From Candidatus Dormiibacterota bacterium (GTDB lineage: Bacteria; Chloroflexota; Dormibacteria; Dormibacterales; Dormibacteraceae): a stretch of 64,000 bases of DNA. The stretch spans positions 1,027-65,026 of the forward strand of contig DATEGC010000077.1 in NCBI GenBank assembly GCA_035280285.1, in the 5' to 3' direction. Made by a program: the position numbers and the translations under genes. The notes under the pieces are model-generated. The model worked only from the letters and a program-made list of their open reading frames with translations, was not told where the DNA came from and did no database searches. Below, piece by piece: positions 17,843-58,914 of the stretch. Numbering within the stretch: the first letter of the stretch is position 1; every line of letters starts with the position of its first letter.

Positions 17843-18187
17843 ATGAGCATCATCGAGTTCATCCGCGACCGGGCCCGTTTCTACAACTGCCCGGTCTGTG
17901 GGCGGAGCCTCAAAGGCTGCGACGTCCAGGTCCTCAGTCACGAAGACGAGAGCTTCCGGCTGCAGGTCACGTGCGCCCAGTGCCAGGTGACGTTTATCGT
18001 CGTGCTCGCGATCGCCGGTGGAGCGCTGACCGAGATCGAGGCCGAGGCGGAATCGGCGACTGACCCCGCCGGGTCGGTTGCTGAGCCCATCAGCGTCGAC
18101 GAGATCCTCGACCTCCACCTGTACTTGAAGAGCTTCCAGGGCACCCTCACGGAGCTGATCCACCAACCCGATCCGAGCCGGGGTTAA
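17843..18187 (+). CDS. hypothetical zinc-ribbon protein
   Basis: CPVCG...CAQCQ Cys pairs followed by an acidic tail; no family recognised. Confidence 0.5.
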   Translation: MSIIEFIRDRARFYNCPVCGRSLKGCDVQVLSHEDESFRLQVTCAQCQVTFIVVLAIAGGALTEIEAEAESATDPAGSVAEPISVDEILDLHLYLKSFQGTLTELIHQPDPSRG

Positions 18188-18188
18188 C

Positions 18189-19280
18189 CTGCGCCGGATA
18201 TATCTGGACGACGCCGGCTCGGCGCCGGTCCTGCCCGAAGTCCTGAATGCGCTGCGCACCGGCGTGGAGGGCAACCCGTCGAGCCCGCACACGGAAGGCC
18301 GGGACGCTCGACGCGCGCTTGACCAGGCGCGCGACGCTTGCGCCGCCGTCCTCGGGGCGAAGCGCACGGAGATCACGTTCGTGTCCTCCGGCACCGAGGC
18401 GATCAACCTTGCACTGTTCGGAGCCACGCGAACCGGACGGATCGTGACCTGGGCCGCGGAGCATCAAGCGGTCCTCGCCGCGGCTCGGCGCCTGCAGACG
18501 CTTGGGCGCGATGTGCTCATCGCGCGAGTGGACGCAAGCGCGCGGGTGGACGTGGACGCGGTCACGCCCGGCACGGCGCTGGTCTCGGTCGGGCTTGCCA
18601 ACAACGAGGTGGGCACCGTCCAGCCGGTGGCGGACGTCATCCAGCGAGCGCACGACGTGGGAGCGCTCGTGCACGTCGATGCGTGCGCGGGCCCGCAGTG
18701 GGTTCCGATTCCTGCGGGCGCCGACCTCATCTCATTCAGCGGCCACAAGTTGGGCGCCGGCCGCGGAGGTCTCCTCCTGGTGCGCGACGGCGTCAGAATC
18801 GAGCCGCTGCTTTTCGGTGGCCCGCAAGAGTACGGCCGGCGTGCGGGTAACGAGGACGTCGTGTCCGCCGTGGCGATCGCCGCAGCGCTGAATGCTGTGT
18901 CGTCGCCCCGTCGAGAGGCTCACGCGCGCACCGCGGCCCGTCAGAGCGCGGCGCTACGAGTGGCTCTCCTCGAGCTCGGGGCGACGTTGACCGGCGCAGA
19001 GCCCCGACTGCCCAACTTCGCCAGCGGCGCGTTCGTCGACCGGCGCGGCGAGGACATGCTGCTCGCCCTCGACCTTGCGGGCGTCGCTGTGTCTAGCGGT
19101 TCGGCGTGTGCGTCGGGATCGCTCGATCCGTCGCACGTCCTGCTCGCGACGGGCCTGAGCCTCGAGCAGGCGCTAGGCAGCCTGCGCCTGACCACCACAT
19201 ACGAGACTACCGACGAAGACGTTGCGCGCGCCTCTGAAATCCTGCGCACCGTGCTCGGCCGAGTCCCCACCCGTGGCTAG
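18189..19280 (+). CDS. cysteine desulfurase (NifS/IscS-like, class V aminotransferase)
   Basis: SFSGHKLGA (PLP lysine), SSGSACASG (active Cys), GNPSSPH. The conserved N-terminus IYLDDAGSAPV lies upstream of the first canonical start (GTG 18264), so the start is provisionally CTG 18189. Confidence 0.8.
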   Translation: MRRIYLDDAGSAPVLPEVLNALRTGVEGNPSSPHTEGRDARRALDQARDACAAVLGAKRTEITFVSSGTEAINLALFGATRTGRIVTWAAEHQAVLAAARRLQTLGRDVLIARVDASARVDVDAVTPGTALVSVGLANNEVGTVQPVADVIQRAHDVGALVHVDACAGPQWVPIPAGADLISFSGHKLGAGRGGLLLVRDGVRIEPLLFGGPQEYGRRAGNEDVVSAVAIAAALNAVSSPRREAHARTAARQSAALRVALLELGATLTGAEPRLPNFASGAFVDRRGEDMLLALDLAGVAVSSGSACASGSLDPSHVLLATGLSLEQALGSLRLTTTYETTDEDVARASEILRTVLGRVPTRG

Positions 19281-51597: not shown

Positions 51598-52977
51598 TCA
51601 CTGCGCGTAGAGCTTTTCGCGGATGGATTGAACCTCGTAACGCAAGCGTTCGTCTTCCTTCAGCTCGTTGGCGATCTTTTCAATGGAATGCAGTGCCGTC
51701 GTGTGGTCCCGCCCTCCAAACGCCTTCCCAATGGCGGGCAAAGACGATGGCGTTTCCTCACGGACGAGGTACATCGCGACCTGGCGGGGGAACACGATGT
51801 GCTTGTCGCGTCGCTTGCCCTTCATGTCCTCGAGCGTGACGTTGTAGTAGTCGGCGACCAGCAACTGGATCCGTTCGACGTTGATTGGCTTGCGGGTCCC
51901 GGCCGGGATGATGTCGGAAAGCAGGCGGGCCGCCTCCTCCTCGTCGACCGGCCTTTGATGCACTGCGGCAAAAGCCTGCACCCTCGTCAGCGCGCCTTCC
52001 AGCTCGCGGATGTTGCGCTGAACCTTGTGAGCGATGAAGTTCAGCACTTCCTCGGGGATGAGGCTGTCGTTGCTGCCAAGCTTGGAACGCAGGATCGCGA
52101 GGCGAGTCTCGAAGTCCGCAGGCTGGATGTCGGCGATGAGACCCCACTCGAACCTCGAGCGGAGCCGGTCCTCCAGTGTCGGGATCTCTTTTGGCGGACG
52201 GTCCGACGAGATGACGATCTGCTTGTTGATCTCGTGCAGCGCATTGAAAGTGTGGAAGAACTCTTCTTTCGTGCGGTCTTTACCGGCGAGGAACTGCACG
52301 TCATCGATGAGCAACACGTCGACCGTGCGGTACTGGTGCCGGAATTCGCCCATCCGCGCGGTGGCGATGGAGCTGATCACCTCGTTGGTGAACTGTTCGG
52401 AGGTCAGGTAGACCACGCGCTTGCGCGGAAAGCGGTCGTGCACCTCGTGACCGATGGCGTGCATGAGATGCGTCTTGCCCAATCCCACGCCTCCATAAAG
52501 GAAGAGAGGGTTGTAGCTGTCGCCAGGCGCTTCCGCGACTGCTTTGGCGGCGGCGTGCGCGAACTGCGAGTTGTGGCCGACGACGAATGATGAAAATCGA
52601 AAACGCCCATTGAGCTCCGAGGGGGCGATGGCCGGGGCCTCGACCTCAGGCTCGGCCCCGTTATTGTGTCCATTCTCGGCGGTGTGGTCGTCGTCGTCAC
52701 CCTCGAACAGCGCGTGCGCAGGCCGGTGTCCGGAAGGAGCGATCACAAAATCGATATCAACTTCAGAGCCGGTGACCGCCTGCAGCGTCTCCTGAATCAA
52801 GCCCGAGAACCGGTCTTCCAGCCAGTCCTTCGCGAGCTTGCTGGGCACGCCGATGCGAAACGTGCCGCCGTCCGCGGATACGACCGATGTGTTCTTGAGC
52901 CACATGTCATAGGTGCGCTTGGCGAGTTGAAAGCGGAGCTCCTCCTGCACCTGTGACCAGATCTGGTCCTGGTTCAC
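51598..52977 (-). CDS. dnaA: chromosomal replication initiator protein DnaA
   Basis: GTG 52977 with a GGAGG SD. GGVGLGKTHLMHAIG, LLIDDVQFL, RSRFEWGL, and a domain IV box (AFGGRDHTTALHS). Confidence 0.95.
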   Translation of the reverse strand: MNQDQIWSQVQEELRFQLAKRTYDMWLKNTSVVSADGGTFRIGVPSKLAKDWLEDRFSGLIQETLQAVTGSEVDIDFVIAPSGHRPAHALFEGDDDDHTAENGHNNGAEPEVEAPAIAPSELNGRFRFSSFVVGHNSQFAHAAAKAVAEAPGDSYNPLFLYGGVGLGKTHLMHAIGHEVHDRFPRKRVVYLTSEQFTNEVISSIATARMGEFRHQYRTVDVLLIDDVQFLAGKDRTKEEFFHTFNALHEINKQIVISSDRPPKEIPTLEDRLRSRFEWGLIADIQPADFETRLAILRSKLGSNDSLIPEEVLNFIAHKVQRNIRELEGALTRVQAFAAVHQRPVDEEEAARLLSDIIPAGTRKPINVERIQLLVADYYNVTLEDMKGKRRDKHIVFPRQVAMYLVREETPSSLPAIGKAFGGRDHTTALHSIEKIANELKEDERLRYEVQSIREKLYAQ

Positions 52978-53499
52978 CCCATCCCCTCCTCTCCCGAGCC
53001 CACATCGCTGTGGATTTGATCTGTCACAGCTGTGGAGTGCAGCCGCGGCCACTGCGGAAAACCTGTGGACAATCCAGGATCAACTTTTCGGTGGGCAACA
53101 GTCGCGCTCAGTCCCGGCCAGCCCGCTGCGAACCGTGCTGCCGGCGACCGCGGATTCAACCGAAGCTCTTCGAGCATGAGCTCCGCCTCCTTGGTGCCTG
53201 TGGAAAAGAGCGGAGGGGATTTCCACAAGCTGGCGGGTGCCGACCCGTCGAAATCCACTATCCGGTCATTCCCGAAATATGGAAGCGTCGCTGTACGACT
53301 AAATATTGCCTACTTGTAGGATTTGGTGGAATTTATCAGCGTGATCTGATCTGCAACGTTGGCTTGTCGAGTGGTGCTGTTGCTTCCGGGCGCGCAATAT
53401 AACACTGGCCTGTGGATACCGCAAGGCACATAACTCATGCGATGAAGTGACATCGCCGGTATCACAAGCCGACTTGTTTTCGTCCGCTACACTGGCCCG
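52978..53499. other. oriC region upstream of dnaA (DnaA boxes plus AT-rich unwinding candidate)
   Basis: TGTGGATTT 53009, TGTGGAGTG 53031, TGTGGACAA 53064, TGTGGAAAA 53199, ATTTCCACA 53219, AAATCCACT 53251, TGTGGATAC 53411. AT-rich 53268..53345 stands out against the GC-rich background. Lies between dnaA and rpmH. Confidence 0.7.
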
Positions 53500-53631
53500 A
53501 TCAAAAGGACCTACCAACCGAAGAAACGGTACCGCCGGCGGGTGCATGGTTTTCTGCGCCGGATGAGCACGAAGGGCGGGCAGCGGGTGCTCCGAAGCCG
53601 GCGTCGCAAAGGGCGAGAGCGACTGGCCTAA
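53500..53631 (+). CDS. rpmH: 50S ribosomal protein L34, with ATC at the initiator position
   Basis: (ATC)[42 protein letters not shown] is an unmistakable L34. The frame opens at 53446 and contains no ATG/GTG/TTG before the conserved KRTYQP. Not in the ORF track. Confidence 0.8.
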
Positions 53632-53651
53632 CCGCCCTGCTCGCGGGGCGG
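53632..53651 (+). terminator. hairpin between rpmH and rnpA (possible attenuator)
   Basis: CCGCCC-TGCTCGCG-GGGCGG immediately after the rpmH stop. Confidence 0.3.
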
Positions 53652-53659
53652 GCGTTCAA

Positions 53660-54019
53660 ATGAAACGATCTGCCCGGCTACGCAGGCGCGCCGACTTCCA
53701 GTCGGCTATTAGCGGCAAGCGGTTTCATTTCGGTCGCGCCCTGGTCGGCTTCGCCGTGCCCAGCCAAGGGCCGGAGAGCAGGATCGGCGTCACAGTGAGC
53801 AGGGGGGTCAAGAGCTCAGTTGACCGCAACCGTGCCCGCCGTCGTCTCCGCGAGGCCGCTCGCGATGGCCTGCTCGGACCTGATTCGCCGCTGCGCCATG
53901 GGGGAATACGATATGACGTGGTCCTGATCGCCCGCCCGGCGGCGCTCGAGGTCTCGTTCGCCGACCTGGCGGCCGAGCTGAGCGTGGCTGCGCTCAGGCT
54001 CTCCAAATTCAAGCTATGA
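53660..54019 (+). CDS. rnpA: ribonuclease P protein component
   Basis: 119 aa basic protein; RLRRRADF, and the RNR motif region [13 protein letters not shown]; position after rpmH. Confidence 0.85.
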
Positions 54020-54225
54020 CGAAGCTGCTCTTACTTTTGATCCGTGGTTACCAGCGCACCCTGTCGAGAATCCTGCCGCCCAGCTGCCGCTACTACCCTT
54101 CCTGCTCGCATTACACCTACGAGGCGGTCGAGCGGTACGGCTGGTGGAAGGGCGGCCGGATGGGCGCCGCGCGCATCGCCCGCTGCCACCCGTTTGCCAG
54201 GGGCGGCTACGACCCGGTGCCCTGA
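54016..54225 (+). CDS. yidD: membrane protein insertion efficiency factor YidD
   Basis: [35 protein letters not shown]...[14 protein letters not shown]; ATGA overlap with rnpA. Confidence 0.9.
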
Positions 54226-54240
54226 GAGGAGACACCCGCC

Positions 54241-55158
54241 ATCTTTCTGAGCTCCCCATTCGACATCTTTCTGCCCCTGCAGGACGCCGGGCAGTGGCTC
54301 CTGACCACGATCTACGGCGTCGTCGCGGGCGTTTCGATCTTCCAGGTGATTGGGGCATACGGCGTGGCGATCATCGCCATGACGATCCTCATCCGTCTGA
54401 CGCTCGCACCGCTGCAGCAATTCCAGCTGATCACTCAGCGCAAAACGATGGCTGAGCAACGCAAGCTCGCCCCCCAGGTCGCGGAGCTGCGCAAGAAATA
54501 CAAGAAGGACATGCAGCGCCAGAACCAGGAGATCATGAAGATGTACCAGGAGCACGGCGTCAACCCGCTGGGCGGGCTGGTCGGCTGCCTGCCGCTGATC
54601 GTGCAGATGCCGATCCTGAGCGCGCTTTACTTCGTCTTCAGATTCCGGGCTCCGGCGCTCCACATGCCGACGCACTTCCTATTCGTGCCCAACCTCAACG
54701 ACATCCCGACTCAGCACGGCCTGTTCGCGATCCTTGGCCTGGCCATCCCCACGGCCGGATACCTGATCTTTCCGCTTCTGGCGGCGGTGACCACTTACAT
54801 CCAGGCCAAGATGATGCAGATGCCGCCCCCGCCCAACCCGACCGACCAGGAGCTGCAAACGCTACAGATCCAGCGCAGCATGGTGTTCATCTCGCCGCTG
54901 ATGATCGGGTACTTCGCTCTGACGGTGCCCGTCGCCCTGGCGCTTTACTGGTTTGTCGGGAACTGCGTCGGTATCATTCAGCAGAGCTTCGTCGTCGGGT
55001 GGGGGAACCTGCTTCCGGCGCGCTTCAGGACTGTTGCCGGAGGCGCCCCGTCAGCACAAAACAACAAGATGCCAAGCAACAAGCTGGCTTTCGACAACCC
55101 ATCGAGCAACCCGAAGCCTGGGCGGCACGGCCCGAAACCGAAGAAGCCGAAAAGATGA
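54241..55158 (+). CDS. yidC: membrane protein insertase YidC (short form), probable ATC start
   Basis: The YidC core (GVAIIAMTILIRLTLAPL, LAPQVAELRKKYKKD, GCLPLIVQMPIL) is preceded in frame by a conserved-looking FDIFLPLQDAGQWLL segment. GAGGAG SD sits 9 nt before ATC 54241. The first canonical start (GTG 54346) falls just before TM1. Confidence 0.8.
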   Translation: MFLSSPFDIFLPLQDAGQWLLTTIYGVVAGVSIFQVIGAYGVAIIAMTILIRLTLAPLQQFQLITQRKTMAEQRKLAPQVAELRKKYKKDMQRQNQEIMKMYQEHGVNPLGGLVGCLPLIVQMPILSALYFVFRFRAPALHMPTHFLFVPNLNDIPTQHGLFAILGLAIPTAGYLIFPLLAAVTTYIQAKMMQMPPPPNPTDQELQTLQIQRSMVFISPLMIGYFALTVPVALALYWFVGNCVGIIQQSFVVGWGNLLPARFRTVAGGAPSAQNNKMPSNKLAFDNPSSNPKPGRHGPKPKKPKR

Positions 55159-55177: not shown

Positions 55178-55825
55178 TTGAGATCCGCCGAAGGACGCGG
55201 ACGGACCCTGGACGAGGCGGTTGACGCGGCGCTGATCGAGCTCCAGGAGAGCCGACGCAACGTTGACGTGAAGATCCTCAGCGAGACTGTCGAGGAGACG
55301 GTGGTCGAAGTCACGGTGATCGACCAGACGGCGCCGGCGCCGGCTTCGGCCTCTCGGCCGATCGACGGCAAGGCCGAGGCGGCTAAGAACCTGGTCGAGG
55401 GCCTCTTGAAGCACATGGGCGTCCGGGCACAGGTCAGTGTGCGGCCGAGCGCCGATCCGATCACCCTCGACATCAGCGGCCGCGACCTGGGGGCGCTGAT
55501 CGGTTGGCGTGGCGAGACCCTGCGTGCTCTGCAGGCAGTGACGAATGTGATGGTCGGCAAGCATCTTGCCGAGGGCGAGCGCGTCATCGTGGACGTCGAG
55601 CGCTACCGTCAGCGGAGAGAGCACACGGTCCGCGAGATCGCCATGCGCGCCGCGCGCCAGGTCAAGATGACCGGCGACGCGATCACCCTCGACGCTATGC
55701 AGCCGTTCGAACGGCGAGCCATCCATCTGGCCCTCGAAGGCGATCCAGAAGTGACCAGCTCGAGCATCGGCGAGGAGCCCGAACGCCGCGTCGTCGTGGG
55801 TCCGCGCAAGCCGGCTGAGGACTGA
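55178..55825 (+). CDS. jag: Jag/KhpB RNA-binding protein (Jag-N, KH, R3H)
   Basis: TTG start with AAGGAG 9 nt upstream. GRTLDEAVDAALIEL (Jag_N), IGWRGETLRALQ (KH), RRAIHLAL (R3H). Confidence 0.85.
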   Translation: MRSAEGRGRTLDEAVDAALIELQESRRNVDVKILSETVEETVVEVTVIDQTAPAPASASRPIDGKAEAAKNLVEGLLKHMGVRAQVSVRPSADPITLDISGRDLGALIGWRGETLRALQAVTNVMVGKHLAEGERVIVDVERYRQRREHTVREIAMRAARQVKMTGDAITLDAMQPFERRAIHLALEGDPEVTSSSIGEEPERRVVVGPRKPAED

Positions 55826-57421: not shown

Positions 57422-58066
57422 CTAGGCGGCCGCCGGACGCGTGGAGCCTACGAAGACGCTTCCGGTTTCGAGAGCCGGCATCTTCGCGTAGATGTTGCCG
57501 AAGCTGCCGATCGGCCAGATCCTGAACCACGCCTTGCCGTCGATCCGGTCGCGGCTGATCGGACCGAAGAAGCGCGAGTCCTGGGAGCGGTTCCGGTTGT
57601 CGCCCATAACGAAGTAATCGTTGGGCGGAATAACTGAACCATCACCCTGGCTCCATGGAGCCGGGTTGTTGTCGTTCGTCCACGCCTCCGGCAGGTACGG
57701 CTCGTCCAGCCTGTGACCGTCGATGTAGACGACCCCGCTGCGGATCATGAGCCGCTCGCCCGGCAGCGCGATGACGCGCTTGATGAAGTCGGTGGAGTTG
57801 TTCGTGGGCGGCCGCAGGATGATGATGTCGCCGCGCTGCGGTGGATGGAGTCGGTAGTCGATCTTGTTGGCGATCAAGTAATCGTTGTCGTCGAGCGTCG
57901 CCCACATCGAGAGGCCCTCCACGTGGACTGCCTGAATAACAAAGCTGATCCCTATGTAAAGGATGACTGCCAGCACGACGACCTCGGCAACCTCACGCAG
58001 CAGCGACGAGGTCGCGGAGCGTTCAGTCGAGGCGGCGCCAGCCGCAGGTTGGTGTTGGGCCGCCAT
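57422..58066 (-). CDS. lepB: signal peptidase I
   Basis: N-terminal TM, GLSMWATL (Ser box), FIKRVIALPGE (Lys box), VMGDNRNRSQDSR. Confidence 0.85.
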   Translation of the reverse strand: MAAQHQPAAGAASTERSATSSLLREVAEVVVLAVILYIGISFVIQAVHVEGLSMWATLDDNDYLIANKIDYRLHPPQRGDIIILRPPTNNSTDFIKRVIALPGERLMIRSGVVYIDGHRLDEPYLPEAWTNDNNPAPWSQGDGSVIPPNDYFVMGDNRNRSQDSRFFGPISRDRIDGKAWFRIWPIGSFGNIYAKMPALETGSVFVGSTRPAAA

Positions 58067-58071
58067 GCGTT

Positions 58072-58914
58072 TTAGGAGACGAGCTTAACGCAGACCCGTT
58101 CCAGCTCTTCGCGGCTCGAGTAACGCAGCTCCATCGTGCCTCGCCTGAGGCTTCCGGTGAGCTTGACCGGCACGCCGAGGCTGGATTCGATGTCGGCGGC
58201 GATCGCGCGCAGCTCCGCGGACGATTGACCGTGACGTCGGCGGCGCGGCCGGTACGTCCGCACCCAGTTCTCTGTCTGCCTGACGGACAGATGCTTTGCA
58301 ATCACGACCTTCAGGCCTTGCTCCTGCGCGACCAGGCTTTCCAGTGCGATCAAGGCGCGGGCGTGGCCGGCGGTTATGACGCCGGCCGCAACGGCCGACT
58401 GCACCGCGGGACATCCGCTCAGCAGACGCAGCGATTGCGTGACCGAGACACGATGCTTGCCCAGACGCTGCGCTACTTCCTCATGCGTCAGGCCGAACTC
58501 CTCGATGAGCCGGCGCAGGCCTCGCGCTTCTTCGATGGGATCGAGGTCGGTGCGCTGCAGGTTCTCGATCAGCCCGAGGACCAGCTGCTCGTCATTGCCC
58601 GTGTCGCTTCGCACGACGGCGGGGACGGTCTGTAGACCCGCCAGTCTCGCGGCCCGCCAGCGTCGCTCGCCGGCGATAAGCTCGTAACCATCGGCCAGCG
58701 GCCGGACGAGCAGGGGCTGCAGAATGCCATGCAGACGGATCGACTCCGCGAGCTCGCCGAGCGGCTCGGCATCGAACCGTGAGCGCACCTGCTGGCGCGA
58801 AGGGCGGATCTGGTCGATGGCGATCATCTGCGGCACTAAGGCCTCCCCTGCGCGCGACATTGGGATCAGGGCGTCGAGTCCGCGACCGAGTCCGCGGGGG
58901 CGAGGTTGGCTCAT
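58072..58914 (-). CDS. parB: chromosome partitioning protein ParB/Spo0J
   Basis: Start at ATG 58914 (ATGA overlap with parA): MSQPRPRGLGRGLDALI. GILQPLLVRP, IAGERRWRAA, ENLQRTDL, plus an HTH. Confidence 0.9.
   Translation of the reverse strand: MSQPRPRGLGRGLDALIPMSRAGEALVPQMIAIDQIRPSRQQVRSRFDAEPLGELAESIRLHGILQPLLVRPLADGYELIAGERRWRAARLAGLQTVPAVVRSDTGNDEQLVLGLIENLQRTDLDPIEEARGLRRLIEEFGLTHEEVAQRLGKHRVSVTQSLRLLSGCPAVQSAVAAGVITAGHARALIALESLVAQEQGLKVVIAKHLSVRQTENWVRTYRPRRRRHGQSSAELRAIAADIESSLGVPVKLTGSLRRGTMELRYSSREELERVCVKLVS

Follow-up and report, generated by a model that had tools for sequence, protein, structure and literature searches.

The question raised by this locus is with which codon, and in what context, translation of rpmH begins. 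The stretch analysed here, 64,000 nucleotides of contig DATEGC010000077.1 from a Candidatus Dormibacterota bacterium (hereafter the window), encodes ribosomal protein bL34 (L34) with ATC where the initiator ATG would be expected, and start-codon choice is among the most conserved traits of bacterial translation. The best explanation, to which as a whole a probability of roughly 0.85 is assigned, is that rpmH is a functional gene initiated at the near-cognate codon AUC, that this start dates back to the base of the Dormibacterota or close to it and was then retained by selection throughout the phylum, and that the rpmH mRNA is most likely leaderless in the lineage of the window. The features discussed are listed in Table 1.

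Translation of positions 53446-53631 of the window yields the L34 core plus 18 upstream codons. The product matches the Pfam family Ribosomal_L34 (PF00468) over model positions 2-43 of 44 with E = 7.6e-18 and 64.6 bits, the curated cut-off of the family being 25 bits, and the match opens at the residue immediately after ATC. The first ATG, GTG or TTG of the frame is the GTG at 53542, which is codon 15 and lies within the L34 core. The preliminary description of this DNA had recognised a genuine L34 with ATC in the methionine position, in a frame opening after the TGA at 53443-53445, and had remarked on the hexamer TACACT at 53488-53493, 6 nt before ATC, with no Shine-Dalgarno (SD) site; translation and the Pfam match confirm the former, and the latter is borne out in the window sequence, which has no SD-like purine run between hexamer and ATC and no SD site in the 20 nt 5′ of ATC. 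The gene order of the window, dnaA / rpmH-rnpA-yidD-yidC-jag, is conserved in related Dormibacterota loci.

A scan with the DnaA protein of the window, retaining one genome per species, identified 65 Candidatus Dormibacterota loci (L001-L065) with DnaA identity of 65-96%; outgroups from Acidobacteria and Anaerovibrio were taken from the same scan. The phylum was formerly known as AD3, and older records carry the label 'Chloroflexi bacterium'. The rpmH set consists of 59 of these loci and the window (n = 60), drawn from many projects, assemblers and platforms, and two of its members (L054 and L055) lie on long-read-sized contigs of 785 and 884 kb. The codon aligned to the initiator methionine is ATC in 56 sequences and ATG in four, and never ATT or ATA; the four ATG loci (L030, L033, L053 and L065) group together in a clade of their own, whose leader differs. 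Among the outgroups, L34 starts with TTG in the same column in Anaerovibrio and with ATG one codon upstream (M-P-KRTFQP) in Acidobacteria. In most ATC loci the frame between the nearest upstream stop and ATC is devoid of canonical starts. The stop is only 12 nt 5′ of ATC in five loci (L003, L007, L009, L037, L048) and 15 nt in three (L028, L032, L034), with no other near-cognate codon between the two, and in four of these eight loci it falls inside the -10 box.

The alignment places the beginning of the protein at the same point. At codons 2-19 the amino acids are invariant or nearly so and synonymous change is abundant, position 3 being always arginine although six different codons are used, whereas codons -1 to -5 are unconserved, with 10-14 different residues each and stops included. 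At codon 15, GTG occurs in just 32 of the 60 sequences, and 27 have no start codon there at all; therefore, a downstream start cannot be general. As judged from these patterns, coding constraint begins sharply at ATC, rpmH is a functional gene under purifying selection, and its start is a real and conserved near-cognate codon, with initiation at ATC 53500-53502.

The sequences upstream of ATC differ among lineages. On a neighbour-joining tree of DnaA, the basal lineages have GAGGT, GGGAG or AGGAG at ~7-10 nt before ATC, while a large derived group has GGTACACTACCGCG-GTTC followed by a 35-46-nt leader with GGGGGA or GGGAGA and then ATC. Every leadered lineage thus carries GAGGT, GGGAG or GGGGGA at ~7-10 nt from the start. 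The ATG clade has TACACT, 10-12 nt without an SD site, and ATG. The window clade, together with L014, L022 and L026, has TACACT, exactly 6 nt (GGCCCG, GGCGCG or ACCGCG) and ATC; TAcACT is invariant in the 20 rpmH sequences listed with a gap of this length (19 loci and the window). In SD-bearing relatives the same box followed by ACCGCG is located 35-46 nt 5′ of ATC. Because the box and discriminator are shared with these leadered relatives, the 5′ leader of the window clade was apparently deleted cleanly. As a result, the predicted +1 apparently coincides with the A of ATC, and the rpmH mRNA of the window lineage most likely begins with 5′-AUC and is leaderless. Folding predictions leave the first ~17 nt, counted from ATC, unpaired (z = +1.2 versus shuffles).

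In the proposed mechanism, the ordinary initiator formylmethionyl-tRNA would read AUC with a mismatch at the third position, and the protein would begin Met-Lys-Arg-Thr. In Escherichia coli reporters, initiation from AUC reaches 1-2% of that from AUG, and the product carries an N-terminal methionine (bioRxiv 10.1101/063800). A strong SD site would assist the AUC start in the basal and most other lineages; in the window lineage, with the whole 5′ leader deleted, initiation would depend on the 5′ end of the mRNA.

Several observations weigh against this account. On a leaderless mRNA of Caulobacter, AUC 'drastically decreased' reporter expression, as did other near-cognates; E. coli requires AUG on leaderless mRNA, mycobacteria accepting AUG or GUG; and a near-cognate 5′ codon on leaderless mRNA was very poorly translated in every bacterium tested (PMC8459731). 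L34 must be made in the same amount as ribosomes, a demand to which a codon of 1-2% efficiency in E. coli is ill suited. A scan for sigma-70 consensus promoters called none for rpmH, and no -35-like hexamer accompanies TACACT, a conserved GTATCAC half-site being found 22 nt 5′ of the -10 box instead. The SD-less sister clade changed to ATG while the clade with leaderless geometry kept ATC, so that SD-less initiation seems to favour AUG even within the Dormibacterota. That the rpmH mRNA is truly leaderless with 5′-AUC and no SD site, and yet supports an efficient start of an abundant ribosomal protein, is put forward as a possibility that falls short of an even chance.

The GTATCAC half-site is the right arm of an inverted repeat in the -35 region, and in the leadered clades, too, the right half-site GTATCAS holds its 22-nt spacing from the -10 box; the repeat may represent an operator-like site or a set of degenerate DnaA boxes at the place where a -35 element would be expected. 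Leaderless geometry is found elsewhere in the window. In several genes (thiG, folP, moaC and those for a Ser/Thr kinase, a cytochrome c and an M16 peptidase), a hexamer resembling a -10 box precedes the canonical start by 6-10 nt and an SD site is lacking, which suggests that leaderless or very-short-leader mRNAs are widespread in this genome.

Table 1. Features of the rpmH locus and other genes of the window (positions in the 64,000-nt stretch).
Feature	Position	Strand	Basis or remark
rpmH (ribosomal protein bL34), coding sequence	53500..53631	+	43 codons and TAA, starting at ATC; Pfam match, codon conservation
Near-cognate start codon ATC (AUC) of rpmH	53500..53502	+	same codon in 56/60 Dormibacterota rpmH
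In-frame TGA closing the rpmH frame, 57 nt 5′ of ATC	53443..53445	+	window sequence
-10-like hexamer TACACT (putative promoter)	53488..53493	+	invariant in window clade; predicted +1 = A of ATC
G+C-rich GGCCCG between TACACT and ATC	53494-53499	+	window sequence
Inverted repeat GTGAYA-N7-TATCAC, operator-like, -35 region	53447..53465	.	alignment; right arm 22 nt upstream of -10 box
Hairpin CCGCCC-tgctcgcg-GGGCGG between rpmH stop and rnpA ATG	53632..53651	+	read from sequence; no T-run, no terminator call
rnpA (RNase P protein), ATG start	53660..54019	+	start column in relatives GTG 36, ATG 9, TTG 7, ATC 4
yidD, ATG start overlapping rnpA stop	54016..54225	+	relatives ATG 49, GTG 9
yidC, proposed start ATC 54241-54243	54241..55158	+	SD GAGGAG 54226-54231, 9 nt upstream; start column in relatives
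jag/khpB (Jag_N, KH, R3H), TTG start	55178..55825	+	open reading frame list, Pfam, relatives
dnaA, divergent from rpmH, comparative start GTG 52977	51598..52977	-	relatives GTG 38, TTG 12, ATG 4
Genes with -10-like hexamer close to canonical start (thiG, folP, moaC, kinase, cytochrome c, M16 peptidase)	32942, 36073, 15310, 20031, 44495, 56143

The only other gene of the dnaA neighbourhood with predominantly AUH starts (AUC, AUA or AUU) is yidC. Its reading frame stays open from the stop of yidD onward, and a conserved N-terminus is encoded 5′ of the first canonical start (GTG 54346), as the preliminary description had noticed; initiation at this GTG would cost the protein 35 conserved N-terminal residues. 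The proposed start column, which precedes the motif xLSSxFDxFxPI, contains ATC in 29, ATA in 10, ATT in five, ATG in two and GTG in two of 56 loci, an AUH codon thus being present in 44 of 56. In L003, L012 and L002 the column holds AAC, an ACN codon or nothing alignable, and no near-cognate codon is evident. ATA accounts for 2-3% of internal isoleucine codons in these loci versus 23% of the AUH entries in the yidC start column, an excess that makes the column unlike an ordinary isoleucine codon. The start of rpmH is strictly ATC, whereas that of yidC varies among ATC, ATA and ATT.

The other neighbouring genes start conventionally for the most part. Eight other neighbouring families, among them dnaA, dnaN, recF, yidD, jag and a peptidase gene, have a canonical codon in the start column at all or nearly all loci; rnpA starts mostly with GTG and with ATC in four of 57 loci. 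Orthologues of the window open reading frame at 57422-58084 start with ATC or ATT in two of 48 cases. As far as these alignments indicate, AUH starts arise sporadically also in otherwise canonical families. The hairpin between rpmH and rnpA might modulate expression of rnpA relative to rpmH. The longest open reading frame of dnaA opens at GTG 53052, and the comparative start (V-NQDQIW) is located 25 codons downstream. A block at 53382-53428 is conserved in the window clade and contains, on the minus strand, TTGCGG, a 17-nt spacer and TATATT; within the spacer is a DnaA box, GTATCCACA (53411-53419), that matches TTATCCACA at 8 of 9 positions. This block was considered as the rpmH promoter and set aside, being better read as the divergent promoter of dnaA, probably with an autoregulatory DnaA box.

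Two genes elsewhere in the window, for a class-V aminotransferase/desulfurase (open frame 18159-19280, plus strand) and a histidine phosphatase (39780-39031, minus strand), had also been described as encoding conserved domain residues 5′ of any canonical start, and this observation holds. In the former, the Aminotran_5 domain extends from residue 14 and the first canonical codon is at 35, so that the domain begins 21 codons ahead of it; in the latter, the His_Phos_1 domain extends from residue 46 and the first canonical codon is at 78, so that the domain, including the catalytic RHG, begins 32 codons ahead. The starts annotated by NCBI are CTG 18204 for the desulfurase (MDDAGSAP) and ATA 39768 for the phosphatase, and the forms in ENA are truncated. 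Relatives of the phosphatase have canonical starts at several different columns, and the start candidates in the window are ATA, ATC or CTG. Taken together, the AUH starts of yidC and the non-canonical starts of at least two further genes of the window imply that Dormibacterota are much more tolerant of AUH initiation than model bacteria are. By comparative evidence, non-canonical starts are real and unusually frequent here, and still gene-specific.

Such tolerance might reside in the translation machinery itself. An alteration throughout the lineage, whether of initiation factor 3 (IF3), of the anticodon or modification of the initiator tRNA, or of the 16S rRNA P site, could make AUH initiation efficient, in which case the ATC of rpmH would be neutral or near-neutral rather than a weak start with a regulatory role; a speculative form of this alternative is that the initiation machinery of the phylum is generally permissive. 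At least four of the ~50 genes in the window are without a usable canonical start, and in the window clade a highly expressed ribosomal protein gene keeps ATC without an SD site, both of which are in keeping with altered machinery. Against it, 10 of the 12 gene families surveyed retain canonical starts throughout the genomes or almost so, rpmH is fixed on ATC without drift to ATT or ATA, and the SD-less clade reverted to ATG. Neither the window nor the 60 loci that were scanned contained a tRNA gene, and no homologue of IF3 (infC) or IF1 was found in the window or related loci. Altered machinery is a serious contender that is nonetheless given less than even odds, and it is compatible with a selected, phylum-wide AUC start, which it refines. 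The preliminary description had offered a choice between systematic ATC, CTG and ATA starts in this organism and base errors in the assembly: the errors are excluded, and non-canonical starts do occur throughout the lineage, in certain genes rather than generally.

A second possibility is that the weakness of AUC has been selected as a regulatory device like the AUU start of infC, with translation of rpmH and yidC tracking the ratio of IF3 to ribosomes or the maturity of the 30S subunit, since IF3 discriminates against AUH codons; IF3-sensitive tuning of these two genes is a speculative candidate for the purpose of the AUC start. A regulatory device would account for a trait that is gene-specific and conserved throughout the phylum, with a codon that stays fixed while its neighbours vary, and that is common to two genes of one operon. 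Precedents exist in the AUU starts of infC and pcnB (bioRxiv 10.1101/063800), and 30S assembly defects are reported to relax the scrutiny of non-canonical starts by IF3 (PMC6868393). On the other hand, the ATG clade lost the trait without obvious consequence, and the leader has no conserved RNA structure: RNAalifold predicted zero pairs in the SD-bearing leader, and a search for known RNA families near rpmH returned only a spurious sub-threshold match. On balance, regulation by a weak start is rather unlikely.

Much less probable is that ATC is an internal isoleucine codon, translation beginning instead either 5′ of it, through another non-canonical codon or through recoding from an upstream open reading frame, or 3′ of it at GTG 53542, which would give a 29-residue L34. 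The frame of the window is indeed open for 18 codons 5′ of ATC and includes two more ATC codons (53452 and 53461), and gene callers of the Prodigal type yield extended (50-60-residue) or truncated (30-residue) products in relatives. These considerations are outweighed by the stops 12-15 nt upstream in eight loci, by the contrast between an upstream region without amino-acid conservation and near-invariance downstream, by SD sites placed for ATC in the leadered clades, by strong protein-level selection on codons 2-14, and by the 27 of 60 sequences that have no start at codon 15. The upstream mini-frame ATG-AAG-TGA (53441-49) is not conserved either; coupling to it was rejected, the ATG or the stop being absent in L002, L022 and L026.

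A sequencing or assembly error, or a strain-level single-nucleotide polymorphism, with ATG as the true codon, has a negligible probability. ATC and ATG are one base apart and four related loci do have ATG, but ATC recurs in 56 of 60 sequences from varied studies, assemblers and platforms over the whole range of DnaA identity, the ATG loci being confined to their separate clade. The preliminary description had looked to related genomes for the true codon, and the closest relatives of the window (92-96% DnaA identity) all have ATC, not ATG. An assembly artefact was rejected, as ATC is not private to one assembly and is accompanied by neither frame disruption nor relaxed constraint. That rpmH is a decaying pseudogene, with L34 supplied by a second intact copy in the genome of which only 64 kb is visible, can be dismissed with equal assurance, because the open reading frame is intact in 60 of 60 sequences, substitutions are overwhelmingly synonymous, synteny is conserved, each locus has only one L34 match, and strong purifying selection on this rpmH makes the question of a second copy moot.

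The AUC start of rpmH is already implicit in public annotation. NCBI nr contains the exact 43-residue protein MKRTYQP...RERLA for the contig of the window, as well as many L34 entries of 43-44 residues for metagenome-assembled genomes of Dormibacterota (e.g., HEX9362295.1); the NCBI annotation already calls ATC as the start of L34 and translates it as methionine. L34 records in ENA and JGI are either extended to 48-60 residues (e.g., MLRYTGA-I-KRTYQP, 50 residues) or truncated to 30 (VHGFLRR). For yidC, the NCBI record from the same contig starts at GTG 54346 and has 270 residues, and ENA records of relatives start at other internal codons and have 278 and 282 residues; judging by the alignment, public yidC records miss 35 conserved N-terminal residues. 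A literature search found no report of AUC-initiated rpmH, nor of Dormibacterota in connection with start-codon usage.

The distribution of the trait was assessed in a metagenome collection with the pattern ATC-KRT[YF]QP, then any codon but one for lysine, then HGF at L34 spacing, a design that excludes Dormibacterota (always Lys8). In nearly all of the 41 loci retrieved, an ATG, GTG or TTG stands 1-3 codons 5′ of ATC or the upstream frame is open over a long stretch; one locus (L114) alone has a convincing ATC start and another (L084) is ambiguous. In L114 (ORMF010437282.1, positions 266-400), L34 begins with ATC after AAGGAGAGAGT, and no canonical start lies nearby; the protein has His8, is of a non-Dormibacterota-type lineage, and matches Dormibacterota L34 at ~28 of 44 positions. 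The ATC start may therefore extend to a neighbouring lineage, although among the sequences scanned ATC-initiated rpmH is essentially specific to Dormibacterota.

If leaderless 5′-AUC initiation is true, it would be a mode unseen in any bacterium and strongly disfavoured in reporters, and would mean that start-codon selection has been relaxed specifically in this lineage, through IF3, the initiator tRNA or the 16S P site; such relaxation would also explain AUH and CUG starts in several percent of genes (yidC, the desulfurase and the phosphatase). The rpmH gene of Dormibacterota offers a natural system for the study of start-codon discrimination by IF3, initiator tRNA and 70S initiation, and allows one to ask whether weak starts regulate genes beyond infC. 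Gene callers limited to ATG, GTG and TTG mis-call rpmH and truncate yidC and others; for this uncultured phylum, which is widespread in soil, protein catalogues, marker-gene estimates of completeness and predicted structures are affected. In view of the finding, start codons across uncultured phyla merit a homology-anchored re-survey.

Among known systems, the closest are the two confirmed non-canonical starts of E. coli, infC and pcnB, both AUU (bioRxiv 10.1101/063800). Like rpmH, these genes have a conserved near-cognate AUH codon in place of AUG, presumably read by the initiator tRNA and kept by selection; infC, in addition, has a role in the translation apparatus and an SD site before AUU, as most Dormibacterota have before AUC. 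The differences are that the gene is rpmH (together with yidC), that the codon is AUC, and that the trait is phylum-wide and almost absent elsewhere (one or two candidates among the 41 metagenome matches). The SD site that accompanies starts of the infC/pcnB type is present in the leadered relatives and lacking in the window, where rpmH has neither SD site nor leader, and IF3-dependent autoregulation, the defining property of the infC case, is for rpmH a hypothesis.

The leaderless mRNAs of bacteria (Actinobacteria, Deinococcus, Caulobacter and lambda cI) resemble the predicted rpmH mRNA of the window in having a -10 box 6-8 nt before the start, no SD site and an unstructured 5′ end. They start with AUG, or GUG in mycobacteria, whereas the predicted 5′-terminal codon of rpmH is AUC. 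Mammalian mitochondria possess a single tRNA-Met with a modified wobble base. Their leaderless mRNAs have 5′-terminal AUA, AUU or AUC (PMC8459731), as the rpmH mRNA is predicted to have; they differ from Dormibacterota in being an organellar system with a different genetic code. Sporadic AUH and CUG starts on leadered mRNAs, annotated in other bacteria such as Caulobacter crescentus and provided for in NCBI code table 11, share with rpmH the near-cognate class of codon and assistance by SD sites, but they are scattered and species-specific, whereas ATC is the same codon of the same gene across a phylum. Implicit in databases and without a description found in the literature, the ATC-started rpmH is a phenomenon of the infC type in a new gene and a new context.

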